Source: Bacilli bacterium (GTDB lineage Bacteria; Bacillota_I; Bacilli_A; RFN20; CAG-826). Taken from it: 64,000 bases of DNA. The translations under genes were made by a program, and so were the position numbers. The stretch is from contig JAZQOV010000011.1 of assembly GCA_045628045.1 (NCBI GenBank), positions 4,912 through 68,911 of the forward strand, read 5' to 3'. Positions 17,469 to 57,325 of the stretch are shown here, piece by piece (position 1 is the first letter of the stretch; every line of letters starts with the position of its first letter). The notes under the pieces were generated by a model. The model saw nothing but the letters and a program-made list of their open reading frames with translations. It had not been told where the DNA came from and did not search any database.

Positions 17469-17474
17469 ATTTTT

Positions 17475-28958: not shown

Positions 28959-28963
28959 CCATT

Positions 28964-31303: not shown

Positions 31304-32157
31304 AAATAAATACTAGAATTTCAAACCAAACTTTTGATCAAGAACGCTCTTTATACGGCGTAAAAAATGCAGAAGTTTTTTCGTGCAAATTTAGTGGTCC
31401 AAATGATGGCGAATCACCACTTAAAGAAACGTCAATCATAAACGTTCATGATTGTGAGTTTGACCTCCGCTATCCTTTGTGGCACTCAACAAATTTAATT
31501 TTAGAGAATTTAAGTTTTTCTAACTTATCAAGAGCTCCACTTTGGTATGACAAAAACGTTGTTATTAAGAACACAAATTCCCAATCTCCTAAAATTTTTA
31601 GAGAATGCGAAAACATTAAACTGGAAAATTGTAAATTAGAAAGCGAAGAGCCTTTTTGGAAATGTAGCAAAATCACCGGGAATTCCTGCATATTTTCAGG
31701 ATTTTATGGCTTTTTTGCGTGTAAAAATATTTCTCTTTTTGATGTAAAATTCTCGGGTAAATATTCATTTCAATATTGCAAAAATATAAGGATTTTTAAC
31801 TCTGAAATTGACACAAAGGATGCATTCTGGCATTCCAAAAATGTTTACGTAAAAGACTCAATAATTAAGGGTGAATATATCGGGTGGTATAGCTCCAATT
31901 TAACATTTGTAAATTGTATTATTGAATCACATCAACCATTTTGTTATTCTAATAACGTAACCTTTATCAATTGCAAGATGCCAAATTGCGATTTAGCGTT
32001 TGAAAAAACGTCAATCAAAGGTAATGTTACCGGGAAAATCAATTCTATTAAAAACCCAAGGAAAGCGAGCTTTAAAGTCGAAGAAATTGGGGAGTTGATT
32101 CAAGAGAAGAAAAATAGACATGTTCATATCAAAATTACAGGTGATGTGAATAAATAA
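31300..32157 (+). CDS. DUF3737-like beta-helix repeat protein
   Basis: GTG at 31300 overlaps the upstream TGA (GTGA); the alternative TTG at 31285 is the track start. Periodic ..N..(I/F).NC.. repeats. ERSLYG..GESPLKE..RYPLWH recalls DUF3737; this is from memory and unverified. Confidence 0.45.
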   Translation: MKINTRISNQTFDQERSLYGVKNAEVFSCKFSGPNDGESPLKETSIINVHDCEFDLRYPLWHSTNLILENLSFSNLSRAPLWYDKNVVIKNTNSQSPKIFRECENIKLENCKLESEEPFWKCSKITGNSCIFSGFYGFFACKNISLFDVKFSGKYSFQYCKNIRIFNSEIDTKDAFWHSKNVYVKDSIIKGEYIGWYSSNLTFVNCIIESHQPFCYSNNVTFINCKMPNCDLAFEKTSIKGNVTGKINSIKNPRKASFKVEEIGELIQEKKNRHVHIKITGDVNK

Positions 32158-32169: not shown

Positions 32170-33891
32170 ATGGGAAAAACTTCAATTGAAAAACCATGGA
32201 TGCAGTTTTATAAAAATTTCGATGGTGATATAAGCTCAACAAATAAAACCATTTACAGATACTTGGTTGATGAAGTTGAAGATTACTTAGACTACACTGC
32301 AATAAACTACTTTGGTAAAAAATATTCATATAGACAAATGCTTTACGAAATTGATCGTTTGGCAGATTGTTTTACATATTTAGGTATTAAGAAAGGTGAA
32401 AAGGTCGTTTTTGTCACCGCAAACTTACCTGAAACACTTTTCTCATTCTATGCTCTTAATAAAATCGGTGCTGTTCCAGTTCTAGTTGAACCAAGAATGG
32501 CAAAAAGTAGAATTGAACACTTCATCGATATGGTGAAAGCTAAGACAATTATTCTTCTTGATATTGTTTATCCAAAAGTTGCTGACTTATTAGACAAGTA
32601 CGAAATTGAACACGTTATTGTCCAAAATGCCTCGCACGCGCTCCCGTTATATAAAAAGGTATTTAAATTAATACACGAAAGAATTTCAGGTCTTGGAACT
32701 GACAAACGTGCTATTAGATATTCAACATTCTATGACGATTATGCTAAACAAGATGCTAAAGAAGTTAAGTTCAAACAAGGCTCATTAGCAGTCGTAACTC
32801 AAACTGGTGGTACAACAGGTTCACCTAAAGGTGTTATGCTTACAAACGAGGGTTTAAATGCTGTTGCATTAAGCTTCAAGTTTACAGGCAATGATTGTGT
32901 TCCATCAGACCGCTTCTTAAACATTATGCCAATCTTTACTTCTTATGGTGTTGTTTGTGGTGTCCATATGGCATTTACCCAAAGGGTAGAAAACATATTA
33001 GTACCAAATTTTGCTCCAAAGAAGTTCCCAAAATTAATGCTTCAACATAAGCCTCATGCTGTTATCGCTGTTCCTGCATTCTATGAGATATTTATTAATG
33101 ATAAAAGAGCACAAAAAGCAGACTTATCAAATTTGAAGTTTGCGGTCTCTGGCGGTGATGTTCTTAACCCAACCTTAGAAGAAGAGTTAAATCTCTTCTT
33201 TAAGAACCATGGATGTAAGTATCATATTTGCCAAGGTTATGGCTTGTCTGAAACATCTGCTGTAACGGCATTTAACTGTGTTTATAGAGCGAAAAGTGAG
33301 GGTATCCCTCTATGTACCTCAACCATGGGTATTTTTGATCCTGATACAGGAGAAGAACTTGACTATGGTAAAAGAGGCGAAATTTGTATTACCGGTCCAT
33401 CAATTATGAATGGATATTATGATAATAAGGAAGAAACTGATAACGTGCTTAAAATGCATGATGATGGCCTTCTTTGGGTTCATAGTGGTGATAGAGGCTA
33501 TTTTGATAAAGATGGTTTCTTATTCTTTGAAGGTCGTTTCAAATTCGTTATTCCACGCTTTGACGGGCACAAGAATTTCCCTATTCAAATTGAGAGAGTC
33601 GTAAATTCTTACGAAGGTGTTGCAAATTGCTGTGTTGTTGCATGTAAAGACCTTGACCATTTACAAGGGATGTATCCTCTTGTAATTGTCGAGATGGATG
33701 ATAAAGAAATTCCTGAAGAAGAAGTGCGTGAAGGCATCCTTGCTTTGTGCAATGATAAACTCGAAGAAAGAGGGCAGCCTTGCGATGTTGTCGTTGTTGA
33801 TAAAATTCCACTTACTTTGGTGGGCAAAAACGACGTTACTTTGTTAAGAGAACAATATGAACATTATGATTATTATAATCATAAACTTTAA
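32170..33891 (+). CDS. AMP-forming acyl-CoA synthetase / fatty-acid-CoA ligase family
   Basis: AAGGAG RBS. AMP-binding motifs TGGTTGSPKGVMLT, GYGLSET, GDRGYFDKDGFLFFEGRFK. Confidence 0.85.
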   Translation: MGKTSIEKPWMQFYKNFDGDISSTNKTIYRYLVDEVEDYLDYTAINYFGKKYSYRQMLYEIDRLADCFTYLGIKKGEKVVFVTANLPETLFSFYALNKIGAVPVLVEPRMAKSRIEHFIDMVKAKTIILLDIVYPKVADLLDKYEIEHVIVQNASHALPLYKKVFKLIHERISGLGTDKRAIRYSTFYDDYAKQDAKEVKFKQGSLAVVTQTGGTTGSPKGVMLTNEGLNAVALSFKFTGNDCVPSDRFLNIMPIFTSYGVVCGVHMAFTQRVENILVPNFAPKKFPKLMLQHKPHAVIAVPAFYEIFINDKRAQKADLSNLKFAVSGGDVLNPTLEEELNLFFKNHGCKYHICQGYGLSETSAVTAFNCVYRAKSEGIPLCTSTMGIFDPDTGEELDYGKRGEICITGPSIMNGYYDNKEETDNVLKMHDDGLLWVHSGDRGYFDKDGFLFFEGRFKFVIPRFDGHKNFPIQIERVVNSYEGVANCCVVACKDLDHLQGMYPLVIVEMDDKEIPEEEVREGILALCNDKLEERGQPCDVVVVDKIPLTLVGKNDVTLLREQYEHYDYYNHKL

Positions 33892-33920: not shown

Positions 33921-33946
33921 TCCTCGATGAATTCGGGGATTTTTTA
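33921..33946 (+). terminator. intrinsic terminator
   Basis: TCCTCGA-tgaat-TCGGGGA (one G-U pair) followed by TTTTTT. Confidence 0.65.
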
Positions 33947-34099
33947 TTTCAAAACGAGCAGCTATTGTCGGATCAATGTCTATAAGAACTTATAGTAAAT
34001 ATGTGAAAAATGTGTATGATTACCTATGGTAATAATTAGTATTGTATTAGATAAAATTTGGTAGTATAATTACTTTGTAAAAAATTTAGGAGGAACGAT

Positions 34100-37000
34100 A
34101 TGACTAAACTTTTTAAAAAGATTAAGTTGTTCTTGTTAGTCTCTGTCGCCGGCTTTATGGGCTTAGCTACTGCCGCTGGTGTCAAAGGCGCAAAAGCAGA
34201 CGCAGAACCAGAAACAAAGTTAGTTTCACTTGGTAGCACTGCTGCAACAGGCACAAACTTAACAGCAGGGGTTACCGAAGAAGCAGACGGTTTCCTTGTT
34301 GAGGTCGCAGATTCATATGCGGCAAAATACGCAACAAAGGTTGGCGCAAAACTCGTTAATCTTGCTGCAGATTCATTCAGACTTGAAGATATTTGCTTTG
34401 AGTTAGAAAACGAATCAGAGGATAGGTACTTTACAAAAGCCTTCCGTGCTGAAGGAGAAGCAAAGAGAAACAGCAAATTCGTTGCTGCTGCTACAGATGC
34501 TGGATTCAGTCTTGTAGGCTCAAGCGATAACATAAAACTTACCAGCTTCATGAAAGAAGAAATTAAATCTGCTAATTATGTTACCGTTGATGCAGGCTTC
34601 GGTGGTTATGCTGAATACTTAAAGTATGCAGTTAATAATTTAATCGAAGGCAATCAAAAGGTTGAAATTAACGGAATCATGGAATTATTGCTTCAACCAA
34701 TCAACAAGATTCTCGAAGAAGCAGTTAAATCAAACGAAGTTACTAAAGCAATCTTTGAAGTTGTTGATGAACTCATTGATGTTGATCTCGTTAAATTATT
34801 AAACGTTGGTGATGCAAAGAAGGCAGTCAGCGATTTTGTTAAACTTGTTAATGAAATGCTCGCTAGCTACTTCAATAGCATTGACACATTAACTTCAAAA
34901 ATTCGTTCACTTAACAAAGATGCAAAAATTATTGTTGTTGGCGCATCAAATCCAGTTAAAAACGGAAAAGTCAGAATTGGTGACAAGACTGTTAATGTTG
35001 GCAAATACATCGATGCAATTATCAAATTAGTTAATAACTATACTCAAATCACAACTAAGAATTCTGGTAGTTATTTCTTTGTCGATCCAGTTAAATTTGA
35101 CCTTGATACAGTCGAAGGACACGCATCAGTTGCAGAAGCAATTGACGCAGTCGTAACAGCTGGCAAATCAGCAAGAGCAGTCTTCATCGAAGATACTGTT
35201 GCTGCTATTAAGAAAGCTGTAACTGAACTTATTGATCATATTTTTGGTAAGAAAGTTTCTAAAGGCGCTATTACAAAAGGTGTCTTAAATGAAAGAAATG
35301 ATTTAACAGAATTTATTATGGAATTCTTTGATGGCGTTATCTATTCAGCCTTCCCAGGTATTGAACAAGAACACGTTGTCACAGAAATTGTTGATTTCTT
35401 TAGCGAAGATATATTCAGCAAAATCAACGCATTCGCTGTTGGTATTGTTGCAAAAGTAACAGATGAAATTATTCCTGCTGCTTTTGATCAAGTTATGACT
35501 GTTCTTAGCGGTGTTGCTTGCTATATCGAAAACGTTGTTATCGAAGCAATCAACTTTGTTGCAGCAATTCCAGCAAACATGGAAAACTGTGCAAGTGTCC
35601 AAATGATTATGGATTTCTATAATCAAACCTTCGAAACTAAAGTTAACGTCCTTGCTGATGTTCTTTCAAAAGCATTCATTGATTTAAGAGGACAAATTAC
35701 TGAAGGTGTTGGATTCTTATTTACTATTCCAGCTATTTTAACAGTTGAAATTCGTTCCGCTTTATTAGCAAAACTTGTAACTGTTTTTGTCTCACATCCA
35801 ATTGATTCATTAACAATTGCATATTACTTTAATAAACTCTTTGGAGATGATGCTTCAGCATTACTCGAAAAATTAGGTGCACTTAAAGATGGCAACGCAG
35901 TTGAACAACATATTTATAATATTTTGTTTGATGTTGATGCATTATTCAAAGGTGTTCCAGCAGATGTAGAAGGATTCTTTGCTCAATCAGATCTTCTCAT
36001 TGCAAAAATTGTCAGAGCTCTTGATGGAATCGTTGCAGAAATTCATTCAGAAGTTGCTCCAATGATTGCCGAAATCTTTGATACAGTTGTTGAAAATATT
36101 CAAAAGGTTATGCCACATGAATACTTATTAGTTTCAGAAATTGATGCTAATGAAAACATTCACTATTATGCAGAATGTCAAGATTGTGGCTTCCGCGTAG
36201 AAGTTTATCCAGAATATACTTGGAAAGTTCTCGAAGATGATTATGGAAATGGCGTTGGCATTGGTTGTGATGTTGAATTTACATTACCATCAGTTCGTGG
36301 CGAAGAACCAGTTGTCATCAAAGGCTATGCAGTTGGTGCTCCTAGAGAAATGTCTACTAATCCATTCTTAGAGATGGAAGTTGTTGAAATTCCAGAAATT
36401 GAATTTGGCGATTACGGTGTAGTCGTTGATCAAACTCCAGGTGTTGCTAAATTCACTGTTGAACATGTCTATTTCGAAGAAAATGATGAATATGTTGACG
36501 AAGTTTACTTCGATGAAGAACTTTGCTTAGATTTCGTTCTCGATCCTATTTGCTATTTCGATTCTGGATATTATTATCAATCTGTTGCAAAATTTGACGC
36601 ATACACTCTTCTTGGCGATGAATTGTGCTACATTGGTACAGTTAAATTTGAAGGAAAAGTTAATGCAGAAAGCCTTAAATTAGATCTTGAAAACAAGATT
36701 GCAACATTCGAGACCGTTTATGGAGTTGATGAATTAAGTAGCACATTCTCCTTAGCACATAGTTACGGATATACACCATACGTTAGCACTTATGAATTCG
36801 ACGATGAAACAGGTGTCTTAACAGCTATTGGTACAATTGTTACAGAAGGTGGCAAAAACTTCGATTATGAAGAAAGCGTTAGCTTTGCAGATGGCACACT
36901 TCATTTCTATGATGAAGATCAATATGATGAAGATGACAATCTAGTTTATGAAGAAGGTTTCACTGCTGAATTTGAAGTCTTCGGCACACAACAAATTTCA

Positions 37001-38488
37001 TATCACATGGAAGATGTTGAATATGTTTTCGACAAGAAAGAGGCCACATACACAGCAAGCGGATATGTCACATCTAACAACGTTGGTGATCAAATCCAAT
37101 TCTATGTAGAAGAAACCACTGATGCATATATTGCAAAGAAAACAACTCCAGCCGGATTCTGCATTTGCATGGACTTCGATTTCCCAGGATTCGCTGATTA
37201 TTGCAAATTATTACAAGTTTCAGGTATTCAATATCGTTGGGATATGGAAGAATTAAGCTGTTTAGCAACATTCTATGTTACTTCCCAAACTGATTCTGAT
37301 ATTAGTTTCATGTTCTATGAATATGCCACTGTTGAAGATTATAGTGGCGTTGAAGTTACTGCTGATGGTAGACTCTGTGCTGATTTCACTTTAGTTCCTG
37401 ATTCATATATGGGTGCAAATGTATCTGAAGTTTACACACGTATATATAATAAGGACGCAGGCACAGCTGTTGAACATTCAAACTACTATATTGATGGTGT
37501 TAAAGCTGGTGAAACAAATGTTGTTTACGAATTAGAAGGTGAAGCTTTAGTTCAACATTATATGGACGGATCATGGGCAGTTGGCTATGTTATTGCCGGA
37601 ACCGAATATGCTATACCATTCTATGATTTAGAAGTCGAAGAAATTCCTACATTTGTAAAAAATGAAAACGGCAATTTCGAAGCAACAATGAAATTCGTTG
37701 ATCCACTTGGACAACACTTTGAAGGCAAATATCTTTTACAAAATGCTATCTATGCTAATTCACAAATTGCAGAAGGCTCTTCAGTTGAATACACATTAAG
37801 TGAAGACGGATCAACATTCACAGCATCTGTCACCTTAGTTGATATATTCGACTTTACTTACATAGTTGAAGAAACAGTACCAGCAGTTAGTGAATATAAG
37901 ATTCTTCCAGACGGAACAACTGTCTTTACGTATAAAAACGCAGTAGACTTTACCTTAAAGAATTTATTCAAAGGTTGTTCTGAAGAAGTTAGAGTTTCAG
38001 GAACCCCACTTGCTGTATTTGCAGAAGGTGGTAAGGCATCTGTTAGTGGTGTTGGTGTTTCATTCAGCGAAGGTGCATTAGAATCATTAAGCGATTCTGC
38101 TGCATTAGTTGCTAATACAACAAAGACCGAAGATGGAACAATGCTTGATATTAAGATTGAAGATCTTGGTAGAGAAGTTGAATTTGATGGTGAATGTACA
38201 GTTACAGTCCCATTTGATGAAAAAGTTCCAACTGGTTGTGAAGTCAAAGTTTATTACCAAGGTGCTGATGGTGAAGTTGATATGGGTGCTGTCTATGATA
38301 AGACAACAGGTACTGTATCATTCAACACTACACACTTCTCACAATACCGTGTTGTTGTTGAAAGAGTCGGCTTAGGCTTATGGTGGATTTTAATCGGATT
38401 TGGCATTCTTCTTGCTGTTGCAGCAGTTTGCTACTTCGTTATTATTAGACCACGCACAAATAAGAAGGCTAAAAAAGGGAATAAATAA
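34100..38488 (+). CDS. giant surface protein: degenerate SGNH-like N-domain, C-terminal TM anchor
   Basis: AGGAGG RBS. Signal peptide. LVSLGSTAATG aligns to the GDS block of the two paralogs. TVEGH aligns to their ..EGH block. C-terminal hydrophobic helix followed by RPRTNKKAKKGNK. Confidence 0.7.
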   Translation: MTKLFKKIKLFLLVSVAGFMGLATAAGVKGAKADAEPETKLVSLGSTAATGTNLTAGVTEEADGFLVEVADSYAAKYATKVGAKLVNLAADSFRLEDICFELENESEDRYFTKAFRAEGEAKRNSKFVAAATDAGFSLVGSSDNIKLTSFMKEEIKSANYVTVDAGFGGYAEYLKYAVNNLIEGNQKVEINGIMELLLQPINKILEEAVKSNEVTKAIFEVVDELIDVDLVKLLNVGDAKKAVSDFVKLVNEMLASYFNSIDTLTSKIRSLNKDAKIIVVGASNPVKNGKVRIGDKTVNVGKYIDAIIKLVNNYTQITTKNSGSYFFVDPVKFDLDTVEGHASVAEAIDAVVTAGKSARAVFIEDTVAAIKKAVTELIDHIFGKKVSKGAITKGVLNERNDLTEFIMEFFDGVIYSAFPGIEQEHVVTEIVDFFSEDIFSKINAFAVGIVAKVTDEIIPAAFDQVMTVLSGVACYIENVVIEAINFVAAIPANMENCASVQMIMDFYNQTFETKVNVLADVLSKAFIDLRGQITEGVGFLFTIPAILTVEIRSALLAKLVTVFVSHPIDSLTIAYYFNKLFGDDASALLEKLGALKDGNAVEQHIYNILFDVDALFKGVPADVEGFFAQSDLLIAKIVRALDGIVAEIHSEVAPMIAEIFDTVVENIQKVMPHEYLLVSEIDANENIHYYAECQDCGFRVEVYPEYTWKVLEDDYGNGVGIGCDVEFTLPSVRGEEPVVIKGYAVGAPREMSTNPFLEMEVVEIPEIEFGDYGVVVDQTPGVAKFTVEHVYFEENDEYVDEVYFDEELCLDFVLDPICYFDSGYYYQSVAKFDAYTLLGDELCYIGTVKFEGKVNAESLKLDLENKIATFETVYGVDELSSTFSLAHSYGYTPYVSTYEFDDETGVLTAIGTIVTEGGKNFDYEESVSFADGTLHFYDEDQYDEDDNLVYEEGFTAEFEVFGTQQISYHMEDVEYVFDKKEATYTASGYVTSNNVGDQIQFYVEETTDAYIAKKTTPAGFCICMDFDFPGFADYCKLLQVSGIQYRWDMEELSCLATFYVTSQTDSDISFMFYEYATVEDYSGVEVTADGRLCADFTLVPDSYMGANVSEVYTRIYNKDAGTAVEHSNYYIDGVKAGETNVVYELEGEALVQHYMDGSWAVGYVIAGTEYAIPFYDLEVEEIPTFVKNENGNFEATMKFVDPLGQHFEGKYLLQNAIYANSQIAEGSSVEYTLSEDGSTFTASVTLVDIFDFTYIVEETVPAVSEYKILPDGTTVFTYKNAVDFTLKNLFKGCSEEVRVSGTPLAVFAEGGKASVSGVGVSFSEGALESLSDSAALVANTTKTEDGTMLDIKIEDLGREVEFDGECTVTVPFDEKVPTGCEVKVYYQGADGEVDMGAVYDKTTGTVSFNTTHFSQYRVVVERVGLGLWWILIGFGILLAVAAVCYFVIIRPRTNKKAKKGNK

Positions 38489-38556
38489 TATAAGAGGAAA
38501 AGGGTTACGATAGTTTGTCGTAACCCCTATCCCGTATATCGGAAAGGAATTAATAT

Positions 38557-41500
38557 ATGAAAAAATTATTACAATTATTACTTGCGCTTACTATGGCAAG
38601 ACCAGCTGCATATGCTGAGAAAAATAAGACATTCAATTATGTTAGTTTTGGTGATTCCCAAACTGCCGGCTTAGGCTTACATGGTTGCGTTCCAGAATGG
38701 TTCTATGAAGATCCTTCGTATTATTGGACAGGAACAAACCCAATCACTGGAGAAAAAATAAAGAGTGGTTACTTCGCATCGGGATATTATTTCCAATCAG
38801 AAGATAGCTATCCAAGATTAATTGAAAAGGCATTACAAAGAGAATACAAAAATGTAAACTTCAAACCTGCCGCAATTAATGCATTTAGAGCCGAAACTCT
38901 TAAACATCTTCTTTACGGCGAACCAATGACTCATGTCTATGATCAATTTATGGCATCTGACTATATTAGTGGTTCTGAAGCAGAAAGACATGAAACTTAC
39001 ACAATTAATGGTAAGGTTTATACTTACGATAAGGCAAAAACAAGCGTAAGTGCTGAAATGATTAGCGCAGTCGAAAATGCTGATTTAATCACATACGATT
39101 TAGGCGCAAACGATTTCGGTGGATTCTTTATGTTTGGATCTTTTGCTTCTTACCTTGAAAAATACGGAATTAAAGTCACAGATTTATATGAACTTATTCC
39201 AGCCGAATATGCTGATATTTATTATTCAACAAAAGGCTATATTTTAAATATGATTCTTGAATCTGCTGGAGAAGCTATTCCTGCAGAATTACTTTCATCA
39301 CTTACATCATATGTTGATATGTTTGTTTATTCATTAGTGTCATTCATAGTTAACTTTGATGCCACTATGGAAAGAATTTATACATTAAACCCAGATGTTG
39401 AAGTTGTCGTTATGTCAATTCAAAACATCTATAAAGATGCACAAGCAGCAATGGGTGATATGGTTCTCCCACTCGGTGACATCATAGGTGTATTAATGAC
39501 TATTGCTAATGCATATACATCATTCTTCTCACCATATGCTAATAAGTATTATTATGTTGATTTTGGTAATGAACACGTTCACGATCATATCGATGAACTC
39601 GAAACATGGTCATCACAAAGATCATTCTTAAATACTTCACTTACACGTTATGCTGAATTAGAAAGATTAATGGGTTATGGTGAAATTATTGATTCATTCA
39701 ATGTTTACTCAGAACTCTTAGTTGAATATACTCTTAAGAACGAAATTGCAGCAAGAGAAAACGTTATCGTCGGTGGAAGACAACTTACATTTGACGAAAT
39801 CGTCAATTCAAATTCCTATGCTTTAAGAAGCATTAAGAATAGAATTCAAAAAGAATTAGCTGTTAAAACAAAACTTTCTTATTATGCTCATGCTAGAGCA
39901 TTTGTATGTTCATTTGAAAACAAGACCATGGCCATGGAAGCCACATGGGGCGATCCAGCACTTGATCAAATCAGTGTTATCGCAAAAGAATATCAAGATA
40001 AATTTAATCCAAATCTTAGCGAAGAAGCTAATATCTTAAATGTTATTAATGATCTTGATAAAGCAATTACTGCTGAATATTCAGGAGCAGAGAACGCTGA
40101 TAAACAAGCTGCATTATTTGCACAATTATTAGGTACTGGTTATGCTTATGCATTTATGTGCCACAGATCTGTTGAAGGTCATAAAGAATGTGCAGAAAGA
40201 GTACTTGCAGCATTCCACGCAAAGAATAATAAGAGAACAACTGGTAAAGAAGGCTTACTCGCTGCATTACCATCAATCTTATTTAACTTTAATAAAGAAA
40301 AGAGCTATCAAACTGTAGCTCAAGTAGTTGCAGCAATTACCCCATTTATCGTTGGTGGTAAGATCAATGAAGGCTATATCGTTTCAACACTTGATGAACT
40401 TCTTGCCTTTATCGATAACGCTGAACAATACGTTACAGAAAACGAAGAAGCTGTTGTAAATGTTAAGACAGCAATTGATAGCTTAGTTGAACAACTTGGT
40501 TTAACTGAACAATTTGCAGAATTACTTGCAAGCAATCCATTATTAAAAGAATTCTACGAAAATACTGAAGAAATGCTCATCAAGACATTCGGTGATGCAA
40601 GACTCGCATTAAAGATTGTCGAATTTGTTGAAATACTCAGAAATACATTCGTTGGAAGAGATATTGCTGTTGCAGTTTCATATGCAGTTGGCGAAGTCTT
40701 AAAAGATCTCGGCATTGCATTAGCTGAAATTGTTAAGGTTGCAGAAGGCATTGGCGAAAAAGTTCATGAAGCAATTATGAACACTCCAAGTGCTATCTCA
40801 TATGCTATTAAAGCAATTGAAGAAGCTCTTGGCGTTGTCGCTGATAAAGTAATGGCAGCTCTTGACTATGCTGGCCACGTTGCTGGTGAAGTTAAAGATA
40901 AAGCAATTGAAGTTTCAATCGAAGCACTTCATGCAATTGATAAGGCATTTGATTGGACAGGTGATCAACTTAAGAATTTAGTTGAATTCATTGCTAAAAC
41001 ATTTGTTAAAACTGTAAATGCTACTGAAGAAGCTGCTAAAAATGCTGCTGTTGCAACATATAACGCAGTTAAATATGTAGCAGAAGAAGTTGGTAATTCA
41101 GTTGACTTTGTCTTAGGAGAATTATCAGAGATTCCAGGAATCATTGGCGAAGCTATAGGCGATGCCCGTGCATTTACTGAATCAGTCTTATCATGGGCAG
41201 GTAAACAAGTTAGCAAGGCATTCTCTGCTGTTGTTGATGTCCTTGATAGTATTCCAGGCGCAGTTAAAGAAGGTGCAGAATTTGTTGCCTCAGTAATTGC
41301 TGATCTTATTGGAAAAGCAAAAGATGCTATCGGTGATGTTGTCAGTTTCGAAAAAGAAGTTGCTGAAAAAATCTATAATGCTGGTAAATCAGCTGTAGAA
41401 TATGTTGTCGATGAAGTTTCTAAGGCAATTCCAGAAGTTGTTGAATTTGTCGAAGATGCAGCAAAATTCGTTTCTGACGGAGTTAAAGCATATGTTAATT

Positions 41501-42129
41501 TTGTAAGAGAAACCATTGCTTCAATTCCAGGTGCTATCCGTGATGCAGTTGATAATATTGGCGAAGTTGCAAGTAAGATCTTCAACTCATTATCTGATTT
41601 CTCAAAAGAAGCAATTACCACAGTTATTAATGTAGCTGGTGAAATCGCTGGTAATGTTGAAGATGCAGTTAAAGCAGGAGCTTCATTTATTGCTGATGCA
41701 GTTTCAGAAATTGCTGGTAATGTTGGCGACTTCATTGGAAGCGTTATTGAATTCTTTACAGGAAATAGAAGAGTTACAAGAGGTGCTCCAGTACCACAAG
41801 AATATCATGGTATTGAAGCTCTTGAAGAATTCGTTGCAAAGATTCAAGAAACATTAGCAAAAGCTGAAGATGTCAGCCTTGAAACTGTTGCTGTGCTTCT
41901 TGGTTATGTTACCAAAGTTATTCCGGCAGCAATTCAAGAAGTCTATACAATGGCTGTTAAAGGAGTTAATGAATTTGTCATTGCTTCTTATGAAAAACTT
42001 GCAAGCACTGTAATGAGCGAAGTTTGTGGCTTTGTTAGTTCAGTTGCTCCAGTTGCAATGAGCGTCTACTCAGACCTCTTAGCAGCATTATCAAGTGCAT
42101 TCATTGCATGGGCTCCATTATTCAAATAA
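38557..42129 (+). CDS. secreted SGNH/GDSL hydrolase fused to a long amphipathic-helix repeat region
   Basis: Signal peptide ..PAAYA/E. Block I YVSFGDSQTAGLG, block III DLGANDFG, block V-like HRSVEGH. The C-terminal ~600 aa are A/V/E/K-rich helical repeats. Confidence 0.75.
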   Translation: MKKLLQLLLALTMARPAAYAEKNKTFNYVSFGDSQTAGLGLHGCVPEWFYEDPSYYWTGTNPITGEKIKSGYFASGYYFQSEDSYPRLIEKALQREYKNVNFKPAAINAFRAETLKHLLYGEPMTHVYDQFMASDYISGSEAERHETYTINGKVYTYDKAKTSVSAEMISAVENADLITYDLGANDFGGFFMFGSFASYLEKYGIKVTDLYELIPAEYADIYYSTKGYILNMILESAGEAIPAELLSSLTSYVDMFVYSLVSFIVNFDATMERIYTLNPDVEVVVMSIQNIYKDAQAAMGDMVLPLGDIIGVLMTIANAYTSFFSPYANKYYYVDFGNEHVHDHIDELETWSSQRSFLNTSLTRYAELERLMGYGEIIDSFNVYSELLVEYTLKNEIAARENVIVGGRQLTFDEIVNSNSYALRSIKNRIQKELAVKTKLSYYAHARAFVCSFENKTMAMEATWGDPALDQISVIAKEYQDKFNPNLSEEANILNVINDLDKAITAEYSGAENADKQAALFAQLLGTGYAYAFMCHRSVEGHKECAERVLAAFHAKNNKRTTGKEGLLAALPSILFNFNKEKSYQTVAQVVAAITPFIVGGKINEGYIVSTLDELLAFIDNAEQYVTENEEAVVNVKTAIDSLVEQLGLTEQFAELLASNPLLKEFYENTEEMLIKTFGDARLALKIVEFVEILRNTFVGRDIAVAVSYAVGEVLKDLGIALAEIVKVAEGIGEKVHEAIMNTPSAISYAIKAIEEALGVVADKVMAALDYAGHVAGEVKDKAIEVSIEALHAIDKAFDWTGDQLKNLVEFIAKTFVKTVNATEEAAKNAAVATYNAVKYVAEEVGNSVDFVLGELSEIPGIIGEAIGDARAFTESVLSWAGKQVSKAFSAVVDVLDSIPGAVKEGAEFVASVIADLIGKAKDAIGDVVSFEKEVAEKIYNAGKSAVEYVVDEVSKAIPEVVEFVEDAAKFVSDGVKAYVNFVRETIASIPGAIRDAVDNIGEVASKIFNSLSDFSKEAITTVINVAGEIAGNVEDAVKAGASFIADAVSEIAGNVGDFIGSVIEFFTGNRRVTRGAPVPQEYHGIEALEEFVAKIQETLAKAEDVSLETVAVLLGYVTKVIPAAIQEVYTMAVKGVNEFVIASYEKLASTVMSEVCGFVSSVAPVAMSVYSDLLAALSSAFIAWAPLFK

Positions 42130-42151
42130 TTTGAGTAATTAAACAAATACA

Positions 42152-42186
42152 AAACCAGATCGTTTCTAGCGGTCTGGTTTTTATTT
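42152..42186 (+). terminator. intrinsic terminator
   Basis: AAACCAGATCG-tttctag-CGGTCTGGTTT followed by TTATTTT. Confidence 0.8.
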
Positions 42187-42291
42187 TGCTTAATTGAGAG
42201 TTCTTTACTTTTCTTATATTAATATAAAAAAAGCTTTTAGGCTTATTTAGGCTCTCAATTAAGAAAGAATGTAAACTTAACCGTCACAATA

Positions 42292-42314
42292 AGAAAAAGG
42301 CCTCTATGGGCCTT
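42292..42314 (-). terminator. intrinsic terminator of the minus-strand gene
   Basis: On the minus strand: AAGGCC-cataga-GGCCTT followed by TTTTC. Confidence 0.7.
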
Positions 42315-42348
42315 AAAACATATTTATAAATAATTTTATTATTAATTC

Positions 42349-43239
42349 TTATTTAGATTTAGCACGATTAAGTAGTTTTGCTATTAATAATGAAGATAAA
42401 TATAGTTCTAATGAAACAAGTGTTGTAATAGCGAGTGTTTCTATTGTTCCTATCTTATCTAGGCTTATATGAAGAAGCATCTTATTAATTACATAGCCAA
42501 TTCCTAATCCTAATAAAGAGAATATGATTATTATTAATAATGCTTTACGAGTTCTTGGCTTTTTATCTTTTATTAAATAAAGTTTTAACGAGAATGCTTC
42601 TGCCGCTACAAGGATGATAGCGGTAATCCAATATAATAAATAAAATTTATTCCCGCCTACGTACTCGTACGAGCCCACAAGTGCGCTACAAGATCCAAGA
42701 AGTGGGATTATAAACGACAAGATTGTTGGTAAGGAGAATTTTGAATTCTTTTTAACGGAAATCATATGCTCTTTATCAAGTACAAGAAGTGGGAAGTTTA
42801 ATTCCACATCTGCGAGTTTGTTTATATCTAATTTAAATGACTCTAATTTATCAAAAGAAACATAAAGAGGATTATATTTATTTACGATTTTAATTAGAGT
42901 CTTTATTTTCTCAATTTGTTGAGCCTCTGATAATTTATTATCAGTTTTTAACATTACAAGTTCATTTAAAATCTTCTTTCCTTGATTTTCATTAAAGGAA
43001 TTTTGTGCAAAATTTGCCATGAAAAAACCAACTTTATTCATGTTAATTTTTATTTGCACAACATCATTAATTTCATTCTTGTTTGAGTCAATTATTTTTA
43101 GACCCATAACCTTATTTTTCGCATATGATTTATTTAGCGAAGAAATGAAGTCTTTATCTCTAATAACGACAATGTTATTTTCAAAACTAAATTTGCGACT
43201 TGAATCGGAAATTTGGAATGTGATTTGATTTTTTTCCAT
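42349..43239 (-). CDS. membrane protein (soluble N-domain plus ~4 C-terminal TM helices), function unknown
   Basis: The only minus-strand gene in this block. Hydrophobic C-terminal third. No motif recognised. Confidence 0.55.
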   Translation of the reverse strand: MEKNQITFQISDSSRKFSFENNIVVIRDKDFISSLNKSYAKNKVMGLKIIDSNKNEINDVVQIKINMNKVGFFMANFAQNSFNENQGKKILNELVMLKTDNKLSEAQQIEKIKTLIKIVNKYNPLYVSFDKLESFKLDINKLADVELNFPLLVLDKEHMISVKKNSKFSLPTILSFIIPLLGSCSALVGSYEYVGGNKFYLLYWITAIILVAAEAFSLKLYLIKDKKPRTRKALLIIIIFSLLGLGIGYVINKMLLHISLDKIGTIETLAITTLVSLELYLSSLLIAKLLNRAKSK

Positions 43240-43504
43240 AACGATATTTTAGATTATTATCAGTTATCTTTCTATACAAAAATTTTTAAAGTTATCCGCG
43301 AAATTACCATTATTTTCGGTATAAAACGCTCATTTTTTAAACTCAAATTGAACTTTTTTGACCACAAAATATTATTTTGATTGTTATTTAGAAGACACTT
43401 AATATAAAATATTAGAGAAGTAAGATTTAGTTCATTTATTTAAATTTGTAAAAAATGGTTGTCTATTTTATAAGACAAACTACATCTTAAGGAAGGATAT
43501 CATT

Positions 43505-46321
43505 ATGAAAAAAAGTATCTCTGGAATCTTGTTAGCATCCGTTATGTCACTCGGCTTTTTAGCTGCACCTAGTACAGTTAAGGAATCAGGAAGTGCAGAG
43601 GAAGAAACAGCCATTACTTTACGCGCGAAGGCAAAAGAGGAAAGAAATTGTTTTATTTCCACTTTAGTTGAAAACATTACATCTGGGAAAACATATACCT
43701 TTAAAATTGATGGAAAGGATGTCGGTCGTTTTAGACTAACCAAATATAAAAAAGGCTGGGCAATTTCTAAGGGAACAATGTTTGTCGGCATTCAAAATAA
43801 GAGAATTGTCTACAAATTAACCCCAACTGAATGGAATTATGAAGATGGTGCATTTAGCCTCCCAGTAAAAAAAGTAAATTTTGGTTTTATCCATATTGAT
43901 ACTTCCGAACAACCAACCCAATACATTAAATCATTTAAAGTTGGTGCAAGATTAACCACCGAAAAAACTAACGTTGAAATTTATAACGTTATTCACACTG
44001 CGCACGCAATGACCGACTGGATTGATTGCGAAGATGGTGTACACCACAAGAAAGTTTGTTTAAATGAATGTGGTTACGAAGAAATTGGCGTTCATAACTT
44101 TGGTGAATTTAATAGTTCGCTTTATTGTCTTGATTGTGGCGCTATTAATCCAGGTGATCCTGAAGTTAATATTTCTGCTGCATTTAGAGAAGTAGAAACA
44201 GTCAATTATTTGAACATTCTTGTTGGAAAACCATTTAAATACACTACATATTATGCAGACGTTGATGTTTCATATAATAACGTTGGTATTTCCAAAGTTG
44301 AATTAAGAATGAATGAACAAGGCGACTTTGTCGAAGGATATAGTTGCTCACTAAATTCAAGAATCAAAACTCTTGAAGTTAGAGTTACCGATACACGCAA
44401 CAATGTTTACAACGAAGTATTCAAAAACCTCATTGTTTCATTTGATTTACAAGGTAAAGCATCAAAAATCGCTCCTATTACACATGTGGGCGAAGGCGAT
44501 AAAATCGCTGCTCCAGAAAGACCAGCTCCAACAAAAGATGAAATCTTTGCTGGCTGGTACAAAGAAGCAGAATGCGAAAATCCTTGGGATTTCGAAGTTG
44601 ATACTGTCGAAGATGATACAGTTTTATATGCTAAGTACGTTAAAGGAAATACCCTTTCAAGTGTTTTAAGCTTAAGCTATGACATCTTCCCATACGCAAC
44701 AAGCGCAACCCCAGTTCCAACAAAATCTTGGGTCAATGGCAAAGGCATTAGAGCATACATTTCAGGTGAAAACCTTGTTCTTTTAAACGGCACGAAGAAA
44801 TTAACACTTCCTCTTGCAACCGAAATGTCTATTAACGAAAACAATGAATACATCATTCAAGAAGGATCTGTTACTTGGAAATTCAACCTTCTTAGATACT
44901 TTGGATTTGATTATTTAGGATATTTTGAAATCGAAGGTTCAGAAGGCTTTGATGGTGCTTATGGTAAAACAAGTTCAAGACTTACAACAGTTATTGCAAA
45001 TGCAACAGGTATGGGTGGTTTCCCAGTTGGTGAAGCTCGTCCAGTAAATGCTTGGTCCAATGAAAAAGGAAATCGTTTATATGTAGATTCTGCTACTGGT
45101 GCAATTACAATTGAAAGCCCTAATAAAGAAGCAATTGTTCTTGAAAACAATGTTCCTGTTAATGTTTTTGATAACTATGTTATCAGAGATGAAGAAAATA
45201 ACATTAAGTTAATGCTTAACACTGAAAATGGTAAATTAACTTCTATTGAAGTTGTTACACTTGGATCATCTGAGGAAACTTCCGATTTCGGAACATTCAT
45301 TCCAGCATATGATTTAGGTAGCCTTTTAGGTACCACATTCCCAGTTACAGATATTAACAAAGCTCCACTTGATGCTTGGTTAAATGGTAATGGCGGAAAA
45401 GCATATATTGATGCAAATGGTAATTTTGCTATTGCAGATAACAACGGAATTGTTTACTCAGATTCCTTAGAAAAACCATACGTTTACAAAGATGGTTACT
45501 ATGTAAATGTCGGTGCTACTGAAGAAAATTATGTTAAAGTTGGTTATGTGGATGATGTTGTAACCTCAATTATTGTTAATGGTAGCTTTGGTAGCGGTGC
45601 AAATGGCACTTACACAGCTTTAGGAATTACTGTTTCATCTGTATTAGACACACTTAAAGTAATCTTCCCATATTTCAATGGAAATGGTGAAGTTTGGAGC
45701 AGTGCTTCTGGCGCAACAGTTTATTATGATGAAGATGCAAAAGCTATCGTTTTCAACACATTCTCACTTGCAGATACAACTGCATGTATTAGAGATGGTG
45801 AAAACTATGTTTGCACATATAAGAAAGGCTATGACAGCGCAAAGGTTACCTTTGTTATGGATAATGGAACATTAACATCAATTGTTGTTTCAGATGCTTC
45901 CCTTATGATTAGACGTGCAAATGGTGAATACGTTCCAACATCATTTATTGAAACTGTTAAAGATGTATTAGATTGCTCTAGTAGAGCATTCCCAGTTAGA
46001 TCAGCTGAAAATAATAACAATTCTTCAGCAATTCCAGAAGAAGCTTGGGAAAATGAAAATGGCATTAAGTGCTTCATTCAAAATGGCGAAGATACTCAAT
46101 CATTAGTCTTCTGTGAAGTCTTAGACGTCAAAGGCTACAAGATTGAAAAGAAAATCACTATCGACAATATTCTTGATAATATTGATCAAGCTGAAGGTGA
46201 TTATGTCTATCAATATTTCACATTTAAGATGACAAGAGGTGTCCTCTCAAGTATTGAAGTTAACTATCCACAAGGTAGCTTATATATTTCATTCAACGGT
46301 TCATATCAACCAGTTCTTTAA
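43505..46321 (+). CDS. secreted repeat protein with one Listeria-Bacteroides-type module
   Basis: AAGGAAGG RBS. Signal peptide. FAGWYKEAECENPWDFEVDTVEDDTVLYAKYV. A recurrent module P(V/L)..W.N..G...YI..... Confidence 0.65.
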   Translation: MKKSISGILLASVMSLGFLAAPSTVKESGSAEEETAITLRAKAKEERNCFISTLVENITSGKTYTFKIDGKDVGRFRLTKYKKGWAISKGTMFVGIQNKRIVYKLTPTEWNYEDGAFSLPVKKVNFGFIHIDTSEQPTQYIKSFKVGARLTTEKTNVEIYNVIHTAHAMTDWIDCEDGVHHKKVCLNECGYEEIGVHNFGEFNSSLYCLDCGAINPGDPEVNISAAFREVETVNYLNILVGKPFKYTTYYADVDVSYNNVGISKVELRMNEQGDFVEGYSCSLNSRIKTLEVRVTDTRNNVYNEVFKNLIVSFDLQGKASKIAPITHVGEGDKIAAPERPAPTKDEIFAGWYKEAECENPWDFEVDTVEDDTVLYAKYVKGNTLSSVLSLSYDIFPYATSATPVPTKSWVNGKGIRAYISGENLVLLNGTKKLTLPLATEMSINENNEYIIQEGSVTWKFNLLRYFGFDYLGYFEIEGSEGFDGAYGKTSSRLTTVIANATGMGGFPVGEARPVNAWSNEKGNRLYVDSATGAITIESPNKEAIVLENNVPVNVFDNYVIRDEENNIKLMLNTENGKLTSIEVVTLGSSEETSDFGTFIPAYDLGSLLGTTFPVTDINKAPLDAWLNGNGGKAYIDANGNFAIADNNGIVYSDSLEKPYVYKDGYYVNVGATEENYVKVGYVDDVVTSIIVNGSFGSGANGTYTALGITVSSVLDTLKVIFPYFNGNGEVWSSASGATVYYDEDAKAIVFNTFSLADTTACIRDGENYVCTYKKGYDSAKVTFVMDNGTLTSIVVSDASLMIRRANGEYVPTSFIETVKDVLDCSSRAFPVRSAENNNNSSAIPEEAWENENGIKCFIQNGEDTQSLVFCEVLDVKGYKIEKKITIDNILDNIDQAEGDYVYQYFTFKMTRGVLSSIEVNYPQGSLYISFNGSYQPVL

Positions 46322-46333
46322 TAAAAAATAACA

Positions 46334-48325
46334 ATGATTAACTTTGTTAAAGCGATAAAAATAATATGCGCTACTTTTAGCGCACTTACATCAATGTTTG
46401 GCATTAAGCCAAATCATGATAAAAAATACACCTATGTTTCTTTAGGTGATTCCATGTCTACTGGTTTTGGCTTTGATGACTATTATATTGACGACGAAAT
46501 CATTCCGGTTGAATCAATGGAACATTATAGACCAGAAGACGGTCATAAAAATGTTCATGGATTTTTAAGAGAGGCCAAAGAAGCTTATCCAACCTTAGTT
46601 CATTCTTATCTAAAAGATAAATATGGAGAAGAGAATGTTGAGCATATTCAATTAGCGGTTAACGTTACAAGAATTGATGATATTTATTATCATCTTAACA
46701 AAGACGCAAAAACTGACGAATTTTATCAAGCCCTTTTTGAAGATAATGGTCATGGTGATCAATGGAATGATGTTTTTGCTAATAGAGCAAGACAATTTGG
46801 TTACACTACAAATGAAGATAACAACGAAGCTGTAGTTGAAACATACGTAAATTCTATAAAGAAAGCCGATTTAATAACTTTAAATGCTGGATTTAATAAC
46901 TTTGGTTGTTTCTTTAGCGGAAAATTAGGCGACATTATTGAAGGTTTGCCTATTGCCGAAAGCTTTGGAGGTCACGACACTCTCCAAGGATTCTTAGATA
47001 GAACTGGTGTTGATCTTAATATTGGCGAAGTTTATGAGCAAATAAATGATATTTTTCATAGTTACACTGGACTTGATTTAACTTCGTATGAAAAGGTCAA
47101 AGTTGGTGGCTATAACATTAATGTTAAATATTTATTAGAACTCATTGTTACTGCCTTTGCTTCATATTGTTATTATATGAATGAGACCACTAAATTAATT
47201 TATGAATTAAATCCAGATGTTGAATTAGTGGTAATTGGATTATTTAATATCCTAAAGGGTATTAAACTTTCTGTTAATGATATAACAATTGATGTTGGTG
47301 AAATCACTAGCAAGATTTTTGAACTTGTTAATTTACATACAGCCTTAGGAACAGAATGTTCAAATAAATACAAATTCGTGGATTCTACAGATTTAAACGT
47401 TGGTATTCATGCTGAAGATATTGCTAATGGCACAATGGACGAAGAACAAGTAAGACGTGCATACATTGGCTTATACACAATGGCTAAAGAAGTTGGTGTT
47501 GATATTCCAACATTTACTATAGTAAAAGACCAAATTAATGGAGCCATGATTAATTTAGGCAATCTTGATTTTGATATCTCTGAATATATTGTTGATGAAG
47601 ATGAAAATCCATTAACTGATGCTGAGGCTTATGAGACTAAGTGGTTAGCATCATCCTTGGTGTTTGGTGAAGAGAATGCTAACAGCATTAATAGCGTGCT
47701 TAACGAGTATTATGGCGTCATTGATTCACTCTTTAATGTTCTAAAACGCGCCACAAACTCAAAAACAGTCACTTTAGAAGCTCTTTCTAGTTTAGGTGAA
47801 AGTATTTCTGTTGAACAAATTAATAATGGCGATTTTGATGGTTTAATTAATATTTATGTTCGCATTGTTATCAACAATGGAATGTGGAGTCATCCTAACG
47901 AAGAAGGGCACATTGAAATTTCAAAAGCAGTTATTGAAACACTTGAAAGTCATAAAACTGCAAAAGAAGTTGGAGAAGAAAGAATTAGAAACATTCTCAC
48001 TAACATTACTTCTGAAATAGATTCGCTAGTGGATGAGTTAAAAACTCAAATTGGAATTGAGACAAAAACACTTCTTGTAAAGTTTATTGGAGAAAAAGGT
48101 TATGAAAAAGTAATTGAAGTCTCCACAAAAGTTTATAAACTCATTAAAGAATGCATTAGAATTTTGAATTTTATAGATCAATTTTTATCTTTGATAAAAG
48201 AATACAATCCTATTCTTTATAAATTCATCGAAAATTTTAATGGTAATTTGCAAAAATATTTGGTTAATCCATTTATTAAGAAGATTTTATCTTCAAATCG
48301 TTTTTGCAATATTTTATTAGGATAA
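46334..48325 (+). CDS. SGNH/GDSL hydrolase family protein (third paralog)
   Basis: YVSLGDSMSTGFG, LNAGFNNFG, WSHPNEEGH. Confidence 0.75.
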   Translation: MINFVKAIKIICATFSALTSMFGIKPNHDKKYTYVSLGDSMSTGFGFDDYYIDDEIIPVESMEHYRPEDGHKNVHGFLREAKEAYPTLVHSYLKDKYGEENVEHIQLAVNVTRIDDIYYHLNKDAKTDEFYQALFEDNGHGDQWNDVFANRARQFGYTTNEDNNEAVVETYVNSIKKADLITLNAGFNNFGCFFSGKLGDIIEGLPIAESFGGHDTLQGFLDRTGVDLNIGEVYEQINDIFHSYTGLDLTSYEKVKVGGYNINVKYLLELIVTAFASYCYYMNETTKLIYELNPDVELVVIGLFNILKGIKLSVNDITIDVGEITSKIFELVNLHTALGTECSNKYKFVDSTDLNVGIHAEDIANGTMDEEQVRRAYIGLYTMAKEVGVDIPTFTIVKDQINGAMINLGNLDFDISEYIVDEDENPLTDAEAYETKWLASSLVFGEENANSINSVLNEYYGVIDSLFNVLKRATNSKTVTLEALSSLGESISVEQINNGDFDGLINIYVRIVINNGMWSHPNEEGHIEISKAVIETLESHKTAKEVGEERIRNILTNITSEIDSLVDELKTQIGIETKTLLVKFIGEKGYEKVIEVSTKVYKLIKECIRILNFIDQFLSLIKEYNPILYKFIENFNGNLQKYLVNPFIKKILSSNRFCNILLG

Positions 48326-49868: not shown

Positions 49869-49995
49869 CTACCCCCACTTAAACATTCTATGTTTAGAAG
49901 ATGGGGGATTCCTACTCAAGAATCCTCGAGGATTCAGTGTCGATAGGCTAACCCCGTAGTTCCTACGGTTTGGTGGACTACCACTATTGTTTTTG
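49869..49995 (-). ncRNA. candidate TnpB omega/right-end RNA scaffold
   Basis: Unusually GC-rich stretch abutting the tnpB 3' end. Minus-strand hairpins CCGTAG-gaa-CTACGG, GAATCCTCGAGGATTC and CCCCCATCTTCTAAACAT-agaa-TGTTTAAGTGGGGG, ending at the element boundary. Confidence 0.55.
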
Positions 49996-57324: not shown

Positions 57325-57325
57325 T

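Follow-up and report, generated by a model that had tools for sequence, protein, structure and literature searches.

We analysed a window of 64,000 nucleotides from a Bacilli bacterium (GTDB lineage RFN20, CAG-826; assembly GCA_045628045.1, contig JAZQOV010000011.1, positions 4,912 to 68,911 of the forward strand). The window carries a gene for an AMP-forming ligase and, downstream of it, genes for three proteins, here called P1, P2 and P3, that have N-terminal domains of the SGNH (GDSL) esterase type. The strongest result of the analysis supports the ligase as an evolutionarily conserved partner of SGNH genes. SGNH esterases and ANL ligases are each ordinary; no description of a ligase-SGNH module such as the one seen here was found in the literature searched. 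P1, which is encoded next to the ligase, contains an SGNH domain that appears to be catalytically dead.

Results

Conserved adjacency of the ligase and SGNH genes

The ligase (573 residues, 32170..33891, + strand) is a cytoplasmic, FadD-like member of the ANL superfamily. An AMP-forming ligase had been predicted at this position, and the Pfam matches to AMP-binding (6.7e-68) and AMP-binding_C (6.8e-7) bear this out. The core motifs (P-loop TGGTTGxPKG, GYGxSE, SGD, GRxK and the C-terminal Lys) are invariant in an alignment of 12 orthologs. In NCBIfam, the best models are long-chain-fatty-acid-CoA ligases, and all 25 models listed score below their cut-offs. The best solved relative is FadD-1 (PDB 3g7s, 4e-41); the corresponding values are 3.5e-36 for 4-coumarate-CoA ligase, 3.6e-29 for feruloyl-CoA synthetase and only 4e-21 for Acs.

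In a forward test, the proteins of the window were compared by tblastn with 26 genome loci (L001-L026) and all open reading frames (ORFs) were clustered, giving 27 neighbourhoods including the window. In 15 of the 19 informative loci, an SGNH gene was directly preceded on the same strand by a ligase ortholog (40-47% identity, E 1e-137 to 1e-162), often with an intergenic gap of 100 nt or less, while four loci had enough upstream sequence and no ligase. This adjacency spans Clostridia, Bacilli and other lineages, and the flanks are otherwise unrelated. No other neighbour recurs with the pair in the 27 neighbourhoods, whether an acyltransferase of the MBOAT or AT3 type, a carrier protein or a transporter. 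The DUF3737 protein, the EIIC permease, a 938-residue protein and a minus-strand ORF of the window locus have no counterparts in L001-L026.

In a reverse test, metagenome contigs were scanned with an alignment of the ligase orthologs. Where at least 500 nt of downstream sequence was present, an SGNH-family ORF came after the ligase in 7 of 8 cases for ligases of 39-45% identity. For ligases of 24-36% identity this was seen in 0 of about 60. The functional link to the ligase proposed in the original prediction thus gains a conserved gene order, both in the genome loci and in the metagenome loci. The SGNH proteins adjacent to the ligase carry anchors that suit their lineages: L008 and L033 have three SLH domains, L009 has a dockerin, and apolipoprotein-like helices are found in L009 and L025.

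Two loci deserve separate mention. L020 (SUSY01000007.1, a 61.8-kb contig) contains the ligase and two SGNH-family genes and is binned as a Thermoplasmata archaeon, so that either the genes were transferred horizontally to an archaeon of the gut or the contig is bacterial and was binned wrongly. The ligase of L031 shares 66% identity with that of the window; ORFs of 276 and 164 residues, read by eye as thyA and folA, lie 3' of it, and a homolog of the minus-strand ORF is found nearby. The window has ORFs of the same lengths at 56494-57820; if the two pairs correspond, the SGNH block was inserted or rearranged.

A large SGNH subfamily with two predicted esterases in the window

P1 (1462 residues, 34100..38488), P2 (1190 residues, 38557..42129) and P3 (663 residues, 46334..48325) are all encoded on the + strand. 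The original prediction described three SGNH paralogs on giant surface proteins. The ORFs are as described and the N-domains are homologous, but P3 is too small for the term giant. In BLASTP, the N-domains of P2 and P3 matched at 1e-23, those of P1 and P3 at 4e-17 and those of P1 and P2 at 5e-8. A family hidden Markov model (HMM), built from 121 relatives with P1 left out, scored P2 at 7e-130, P3 at 8e-128 and P1 at 9e-41. These alignments place the three proteins as paralogs in a large subfamily of SGNH (GDSL) esterases that is extracellular and has no name so far.

General databases detect the subfamily poorly. None of the three proteins reached a Pfam gathering score; P2 gave a weak Lipase_GDSL match (7e-4) with 20.1 bits against a cut-off of 23.6, and P1 and P3 had no match to PF00657 or PF13472 at E<=0.1. 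A PDB sequence search with P2 returned no match, and NCBIfam contained nothing for P1 or P3. In a word-indexed homolog search, P3 had 10 relatives and P1 had 2, and the family seemed tiny until an exhaustive profile search recovered 2944 representatives (50%-identity clusters) at E<=1e-3, 697 of them at E<=1e-30. Many members are 1000-2800 residues long, and some contain several copies of the domain. The genome loci of the relatives come from gut and rumen metagenome-assembled genomes (MAGs) of Oscillospiraceae, Lachnospiraceae, other Clostridia and Bacilli, an origin that refers to the top matches examined and not to all 2944 representatives. In 32 sampled members, Pfam matches at E<=1e-3 to Lipase_GDSL_2 (PF13472) were present in 13 and to Lipase_GDSL (PF00657) in 7; Dockerin_1 occurred in 13, SLH in 4, Flg_new in 3 and CWB2 in 1. 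Matches to Apolipoprotein A1/A4/E, below the Pfam cut-off, were seen in 6 of the 32 (best E 1e-23).

The active-site blocks are well conserved. The block I Ser is present in 185 of 191 domain copies, and Thr takes its place only in P1, its two orthologs and one further relative, P0038. Block V reads H-P-[NST]-x-x-G-H, the first His being kept in 165 and the second in 141 of 172 aligned copies. The standard block V of SGNH enzymes is DxxHP, which contains the catalytic His. When the subfamily profile was aligned with the GDSL lipase 8ik1, LGDS matched LGDSLTRG, the Arg that follows block II matched GLRSD, and HPNxxG[HY] matched FHPNKEGY. The first His of the subfamily motif is therefore taken as the catalytic one, because it aligns with block V of 8ik1 and with the standard motif. 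The Arg after block II is kept in 207 of 219 copies. The Gly column of block II is variable (S in 85, G in 82 and A in 37 copies), with Ala in P2, Val in P3 and Ser in P1. The position three residues before the catalytic His (His-3) is hydrophobic throughout the subfamily (F, I, V or M), and Asp is absent there, as in the Streptomyces enzyme SrL. The subfamily core is thus recognised by two helical insertions, the conserved Arg after block II and the lack of Asp at His-3. This lack would imply a mechanism based on a Ser-His dyad and an oxyanion Asn, as in SrL. In that enzyme, the S10A, N82A and H216A variants are each inactive, whereas the residue at His-3 is dispensable and a Gly54Ala variant is active (PMC10779480); the dispensability of His-3 fits the hydrophobic residue found at this position in the subfamily of the window. 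The subfamily as a whole is best described, as far as its sequences can tell, as extracellular, surface-anchored SGNH proteins with a large helical cap, mostly invisible to Pfam.

P2 and P3 retain complete active sites. Block I is G32-D33-S34 in P2 and G38-D39-S40 in P3; block III is G-A-N185-D and G-F-N188-N, respectively; and block V is C-H536-R-S-V-E-G-H and S-H520-P-N-E-E-G-H. The predicted catalytic residues are accordingly S34 (38656-38658), N185 (39109-39111) and H536 (40162-40164) in P2, and S40 (46451-46453), N188 (46895-46897) and H520 (47891-47893) in P3. An AlphaFold model of P3 residues 1-570 (predicted local distance difference test, pLDDT, 77.6; predicted template modelling score, pTM, 0.81) has the flavodoxin-like three-layer alpha/beta/alpha fold with five parallel strands that is characteristic of SGNH proteins. 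Its top structural neighbours are lipases and acyl-esterases, and acyltransferase matches score lower. P2 and P3 are thus predicted to hydrolyse esters at the cell surface.

P2 is a secreted protein; its C-terminal half (residues 600-1190) is helical and rich in Ala, Val and Glu, and full-length relatives of P2 are P0107 and a 1203-residue gene product of locus L110. Anchorless C-termini of the P2 type (P2, P0025, P0027 and P0107) share a short hydrophobic motif (..LLVTWNLA, ..LLQSMNLAD, ..LLLKWNL..; P2 ends in ..FIAWAPLFK), which may be a sorting or attachment signal.

Loss of the active site in P1

The pseudo-SGNH domain of P1 comprises residues 36-345 (34205..35134, +). Its block I, where the family has G-[D/A]-S, reads G45-S46-T47 (34232..34240, +). 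The segment LGSTAATG (residues 44-51) aligned gap-free with LGDSMSTG and FGDSQTAG in BLASTP, MAFFT and HMMER, and because all methods agree, Thr47 is taken to occupy the position of the nucleophile Ser and Ser46 that of the block I Asp. The proposal that the GST segment of P1 is a block I with Ser replaced by Thr was therefore upheld. Variation of block III had also been noted, and it is as described: P2 has GAND, P3 has GFNN and P1 has G166-F167-G168-G169 (34595..34606, +), in which Gly replaces the oxyanion Asn.

Block V is represented in P1 by the remnant L335-D-T-V-E-G-H341 (35102..35122, +). An EGH block had been said to be kept in all three proteins. Homology of this EGH with the ..GH of the family is supported by a sub-HMM of block V, whose best match in the whole of P1 covers residues 338-364 (E ~5e-4), but what remains is the non-catalytic half of the motif. 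The sub-HMM match (V-E-G-H-A-S-V-A-E-A-I...) starts only past the H-P-N positions, hmmalign deletes the H-P-N part of the family model in P1, and ungapped extension places Leu335 in the column of the catalytic His. The helical insertion between strand 5 and block V is also missing from P1, which amounts to about 130 residues in comparison with P0038 and about 170-190 in comparison with P2 and P3. MAFFT aligned VSHPIDS (P1 residues 564-570, SHP at 565-567) as the true block V after a long insertion. This candidate was dropped as a chance resemblance, since hmmalign deletes block V, the sub-HMM picks residues 338-364 and P0038 has an equivalent AGH.

The P1 domain is thus judged catalytically dead, because Ser, Asn and His, which would serve as nucleophile, oxyanion residue and general base, are all lost. 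To call P1 catalytically altered or binding-only, as had been suggested, understates this loss; the ORF itself is intact. Beyond the pseudo-SGNH domain lies a helical region (residues 346-680, 35135..36139, +), assigned from composition and from a low-confidence AlphaFold2 (AF2) model made up entirely of helices. Hydrophobic segments are found at residues 8-28, an N-terminal signal sequence, and at residues 1422-1452, the C-terminal transmembrane anchor (38372..38446, +), which is followed by a basic tail. P1 would be kept as a non-catalytic surface protein, and its likeliest role is substrate binding, adhesion or scaffolding: most likely it would bind a substrate or the surface of a host or particle, and it might scaffold its active neighbours.

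Maintenance and origin of P1

The two relatives of P1 from the word-indexed search are both close orthologs (83-89% identity). The same gene order and an intact P1 ORF were found in three other assemblies of close relatives (L027-L029), so that this 4.4-kb ORF is intact in four assemblies, and the ratio of nonsynonymous to synonymous substitution rates (dN/dS, Nei-Gojobori) is below 1. P1 is under purifying selection and is maintained. Its overall dN/dS of 0.46-0.47 makes it the fastest-evolving gene of the locus, the values being 0.03-0.05 for the ligase, 0.12-0.22 for P3 and 0.20-0.21 for P2; within P1, the dead domain has 0.28-0.30 and the C-terminal region 0.45-0.55. The ectodomain at residues ~780-1320 (36437..38059, +) is hypervariable: identity between assemblies falls to 47-77% here, against 97-100% in the flanks. 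The dS of this block is up to 0.47 (against L028), as opposed to 0.03-0.1 elsewhere, a pattern suggestive of allelic replacement or of recombination within a module exposed at the surface.

The architecture of P1 consists of the SGNH domain, the helical region, a Cys motif, beta modules, a conserved C-terminal module and the transmembrane anchor. P0026 and P0029 have this full architecture together with an intact active site (LGDSMTTG, HPSAEGH), and the C-terminal module and anchor are common to P0026, P0029 and P0038. P1 would therefore derive from an active, membrane-anchored form such as P0026 and P0029 and would subsequently have lost the Ser, Asn and His. P0038 (L110, 8001-12818) is interpreted as an intermediate stage of this decay: its block I is G-D-T and its block V is W-T-M-P-N-K-A-G-H, so that Ser is replaced by Thr, as in P1, and His by Met, while the Asn and the helical insertion are kept.

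L110 (GC content 33.5%) represents a different genus as judged by divergence. Its gene order is a homolog of the 301-residue ORF of the window (orf301), a homolog of the 779-residue ORF (orf779), the ligase (76% identity), P0038, a P2 ortholog and a P3-like gene with an intact site. Because it is kept in L110, the order ligase, dead P1, P2 and P3 goes back to a common ancestor of at least two genera. The first paralog had thus lost its nucleophile before these genera split, and the P1 of the window has decayed further. In Clostridia, the SGNH gene 3' of the ligase has an intact active site. A second kind of degenerate SGNH paralog was observed 5' of the ligase in Clostridia MAGs (L015, 3370-6066; L018, 4454-7180); block I is IGS or LGE in these proteins, and Glu stands in place of the catalytic His (VLTEPNAAGH, VLTEADSDGH).

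Organization of the locus and other features of the window

UGA is read as a stop codon in this DNA because the ORFs are long under table 11. Hairpins and promoters suggest three transcription units between 28 and 49.5 kb. The locus begins with orf301 and orf779, two membrane-anchored ORFs of unassigned family (28053-31303, +) that had no relatives in Pfam, NCBIfam or PDB searches and are packed directly 5' of the DUF3737 gene (assigned by Pfam; the three together span 28053-32157, +) and the ligase. The ligase is tightly packed with these upstream genes. The position of orf301 and orf779 5' of the ligase is also seen in L110 (1832-5920; 44% and 24% identity), and both may belong to the ligase operon. 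Directly 3' of the ligase stop codon is a terminator-like hairpin (33921..33949, +; 7-bp stem with 4 GC pairs, then TTTTTTATTT) with a T-run. P1 is preceded by a promoter-like TTGTAT-17-TATAAT (34042..34070, +), which was read from the sequence and is absent from the promoter-scan list, and by the ribosome-binding site AGGAGG (34088-34093, +), likewise read by eye. In L110 the ligase is likewise separated from the P1-like gene by a similar T-run hairpin and a TATAAT promoter.

P1 and P2 lie 68 nt apart, and this gap contains a hairpin with an 11-bp stem and no T-run on the + strand (38499-38528), which could be an RNA processing or stability element instead of a terminator. A strong terminator-like hairpin (42151..42190, +; 14-bp stem, then a T-run) follows P2. 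Between the two SGNH units lies a membrane ORF of 296 residues (42349..43239, - strand) without a conserved partnership; this minus-strand ORF is kept in the sister assemblies L027-L029. A secreted protein of 938 residues with a Listeria-Bacteroides repeat (43505..46321, +; Pfam Flg_new 2.9e-11) is encoded 5' of P3 and is lineage-specific, with no counterpart in L001-L026 by tblastn.

The permease gene starts 5 nt 3' of P3 (48331..49440, +), and the genes of the 938-residue protein, P3 and the permease are tightly packed. Its listed start is TTG 48304, and ATG 48331 is the likelier start. The permease had been counted as part of a lipid-harvesting system, which was not supported: it is a PTS (phosphotransferase system) sugar permease of the EIIC_2 type (Pfam PTS_EIIC_2 6.9e-77; PF13303 259.1 bits, above the gathering score of 28.9) and not a lipid transporter, and it has no match in L001-L026. 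Among the big proteins of the window, no internal repeats or cross-homology were detected beyond the three SGNH domains.

Just past the cluster (49984-51887, -) are a gene of the TnpB/IS605 OrfB type (Cas12f1-like TNB domain, 3e-24) and a truncated DUF1016/YhcG nuclease gene. A giant ORF of at least 1851 residues (58447-64000, +) runs off the end of the window and contains subtilase (2e-42) and endonuclease I (8e-63) domains, four Big_2 domains, Big_3, Flg_new and a hyaluronate-lyase N-terminal domain; this surface protease-nuclease fusion suggests a nutrient-scavenging lifestyle. Upstream, an S-adenosylmethionine (SAM) riboswitch (17473-17559, +; 51.8 bits) is followed by an ORF of 107 residues (17557-17880) and a Fic-domain gene (18156-19214), and no methionine or SAM gene is evident downstream. 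A leucine-rich-repeat protein of the DUF285 ('Mycoplasma') type (13132-15582) and two Fic/DOC genes (11827-12711, -, and the one at 18156-19214) fit a low-GC, host-associated lineage of Bacillota.

Discussion

We favour, with middling confidence, a reading in which the surface esterases release an acid that the ligase traps, a medium- or long-chain fatty acid being the best guess and P1 having a non-catalytic part. P2 and P3 would hydrolyse an external ester and free a carboxylic acid at the cell surface, the acid would enter the cell, and the ligase would trap it as acyl-AMP or acyl-CoA. Since many bacteria of the gut and rumen have this pair, the ligase and the esterases probably work together in this way to harvest an external acid, perhaps fatty acids; the conserved pairing would be explained most simply if the ligase used the acid that the esterase produces. 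A lipid substrate is plausible. The best models of the ligase are fatty-acid-CoA ligases, the closest folds of the SGNH domain are lipases and 6 of the 32 sampled relatives have amphipathic helical regions, all of which lean toward a fatty acid, and none of which is decisive.

Several observations weigh against this reading. The score of the ligase with its best model, NF004837, is 279.6 bits against a cut-off of 476, and its similarity to 4-coumarate-CoA ligases and luciferases nearly equals that to FadD-1. The apolipoprotein matches lie below the Pfam cut-off, beside generic coiled-coil matches. Dockerins are present in 13 of the 32 relatives, and the fold of SGNH enzymes does not reveal their substrates. 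The neighbourhoods examined contain no uptake component that recurs together with the pair. The three closest ligases (L030-L032, 65-66% identity) have no SGNH gene within 6 kb, and with a terminator-like hairpin and a promoter for P1 in between, co-transcription of the ligase and P1 is doubtful at this locus. The AF2 model of the P1 N-domain was poor (pLDDT 44) and served for fold-level comparison only.

The same coupling of esterase and ligase might serve a non-lipid substrate, such as hydroxycinnamoyl, acetyl or other acyl groups of plant or host glycans, with the ligase activating the freed aromatic or short-chain acid. Plant esters stay in play as substrates because so many relatives carry dockerins, including the ligase-adjacent protein of L009, and because in R. 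cellulolyticum p-coumaroyl and feruloyl esters are cleaved by SGNH hydrolases with dockerins (PMC12774918), which may or may not belong to the subfamily of the window. The ligase matches to 4-coumarate-CoA ligase and feruloyl-CoA synthetase and the sugar permease gene directly 3' of P3 point in the same direction. However, the ligase is not of the acetyl-CoA synthetase type and its best models activate fatty acids, the top structural neighbours are lipases and acyl-esterases, and Pfam finds neither a dockerin nor a carbohydrate-binding module in the window proteins. Genes for enoyl-CoA reductase or Etf, which would serve phenylpropenoate use, are not conserved nearby. On balance a non-lipid substrate seems somewhat unlikely. 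In a reading without harvesting, the SGNH domains would be extracytoplasmic acyltransferases comparable to DltD, OatA-C, PatB or AlgX and would decorate a surface polymer with a ligase-activated acyl group. As is generally known of the Dlt system, DltA is an ANL ligase encoded beside an SGNH-like protein. We consider this very improbable for the present locus, in which, as in the other neighbourhoods, no conserved MBOAT or AT3 membrane acyltransferase or carrier protein occurs and there is therefore no route for an activated acyl group across the membrane. Acyltransferases also score below esterases and lipases as structural matches, and giant proteins with dockerin or SLH anchors are typical of degradative surface enzymes.

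It is also conceivable that the adjacency has no functional meaning, the ligase belonging to an upstream operon (orf301, orf779, DUF3737 and ligase) and the SGNH array forming an independent island in which P1 is decaying. The hairpin and promoter between the ligase and P1, the tight packing of the ligase with its upstream genes, the lack of SGNH neighbours beside its closest orthologs and the fast evolution of P1 would all be expected in that case. Nevertheless, Clostridia, Bacilli and other lineages retain the adjacency with ligases of only 40-47% identity and otherwise unrelated flanks, and none of the more distant ligases has an SGNH neighbour. The long P1 ORF, moreover, is intact in four assemblies with dN/dS below 1, and its dead state is partly common to the homolog at the same position in another genus. 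These observations make a meaningless adjacency improbable. As for the preferred reading, acid harvesting by surface esterases and ligase, it can be extended to a more elaborate proposal, which we regard as unlikely. Here gut and rumen Firmicutes would share a widespread module of two genes: a giant surface SGNH lipase, often with apolipoprotein-like amphipathic helices, would remove acyl chains from lipid particles of the host or the diet, and a dedicated FadD-like ligase would trap them, as a scavenging route other than that of the FakA/FakB kinase. In the lineage of the window, the dead P1 with its hypervariable ectodomain would be a receptor that captures the substrate or host for its active neighbours.

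If the coupling is real, many uncultured gut Firmicutes would have a simple, testable route to take acyl groups from host or dietary esters. If the acid is a plant hydroxycinnamate, the module would bear on the breakdown of fibre and lignin esters in the rumen. P1 offers a natural pseudoenzyme for studying the reuse of a dead esterase domain on the cell surface. The combination of a large subfamily, mostly missed by Pfam, on giant surface proteins of anaerobes from gut and rumen, a specific ligase pairing and a dead paralog maintained at a fixed position is noteworthy.

The SGNH domains of the window have their closest folds among small enzymes. The Streptomyces rimosus lipase SrL (PDB 5mal) and the Streptomyces scabies esterase (PDB 1esc) are among these, at 17-19% sequence identity. 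The domains of the window are ~500-550 residues long, compared with ~230-300 in SrL and 1esc, and unlike these enzymes they contain the Arg that follows block II and two long helical insertions, one behind block III and one ahead of block V, and form the N-terminal part of much larger anchored proteins. The Geobacillus GDSL esterase/lipase (PDB 7e16, 8ik1) and the rumen metagenome lipase Lip_vut3 (PDB 6nkd) gave profile E-values of only 3e-6 and 2e-5, and they are small single-domain enzymes without helical insertions or surface anchors. The Dlt system (DltA and the SGNH-like DltD) and OatA/PatB resemble the locus in that a gene for an adenylate-forming ligase lies beside a gene for an extracytoplasmic protein of SGNH fold; they differ in that no DltB/MBOAT, DltC carrier or AT3 protein is encoded in the neighbourhoods and in that the ligase is FadD-like and not DltA-like. 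With FadD and the long-chain acyl-CoA synthetases, the ligase of the window shares the ANL core motifs and the best models. A like concept is known from lipophilic corynebacteria, lipid-dependent organisms with a secreted SGNH lipase and an acyl-CoA synthetase (PMC3350403). In contrast to the FadD systems, the ligase of the window scores below the equivalog cut-off and is paired with the esterase in a fixed module of two genes, and the esterases are anchored proteins of giant size.

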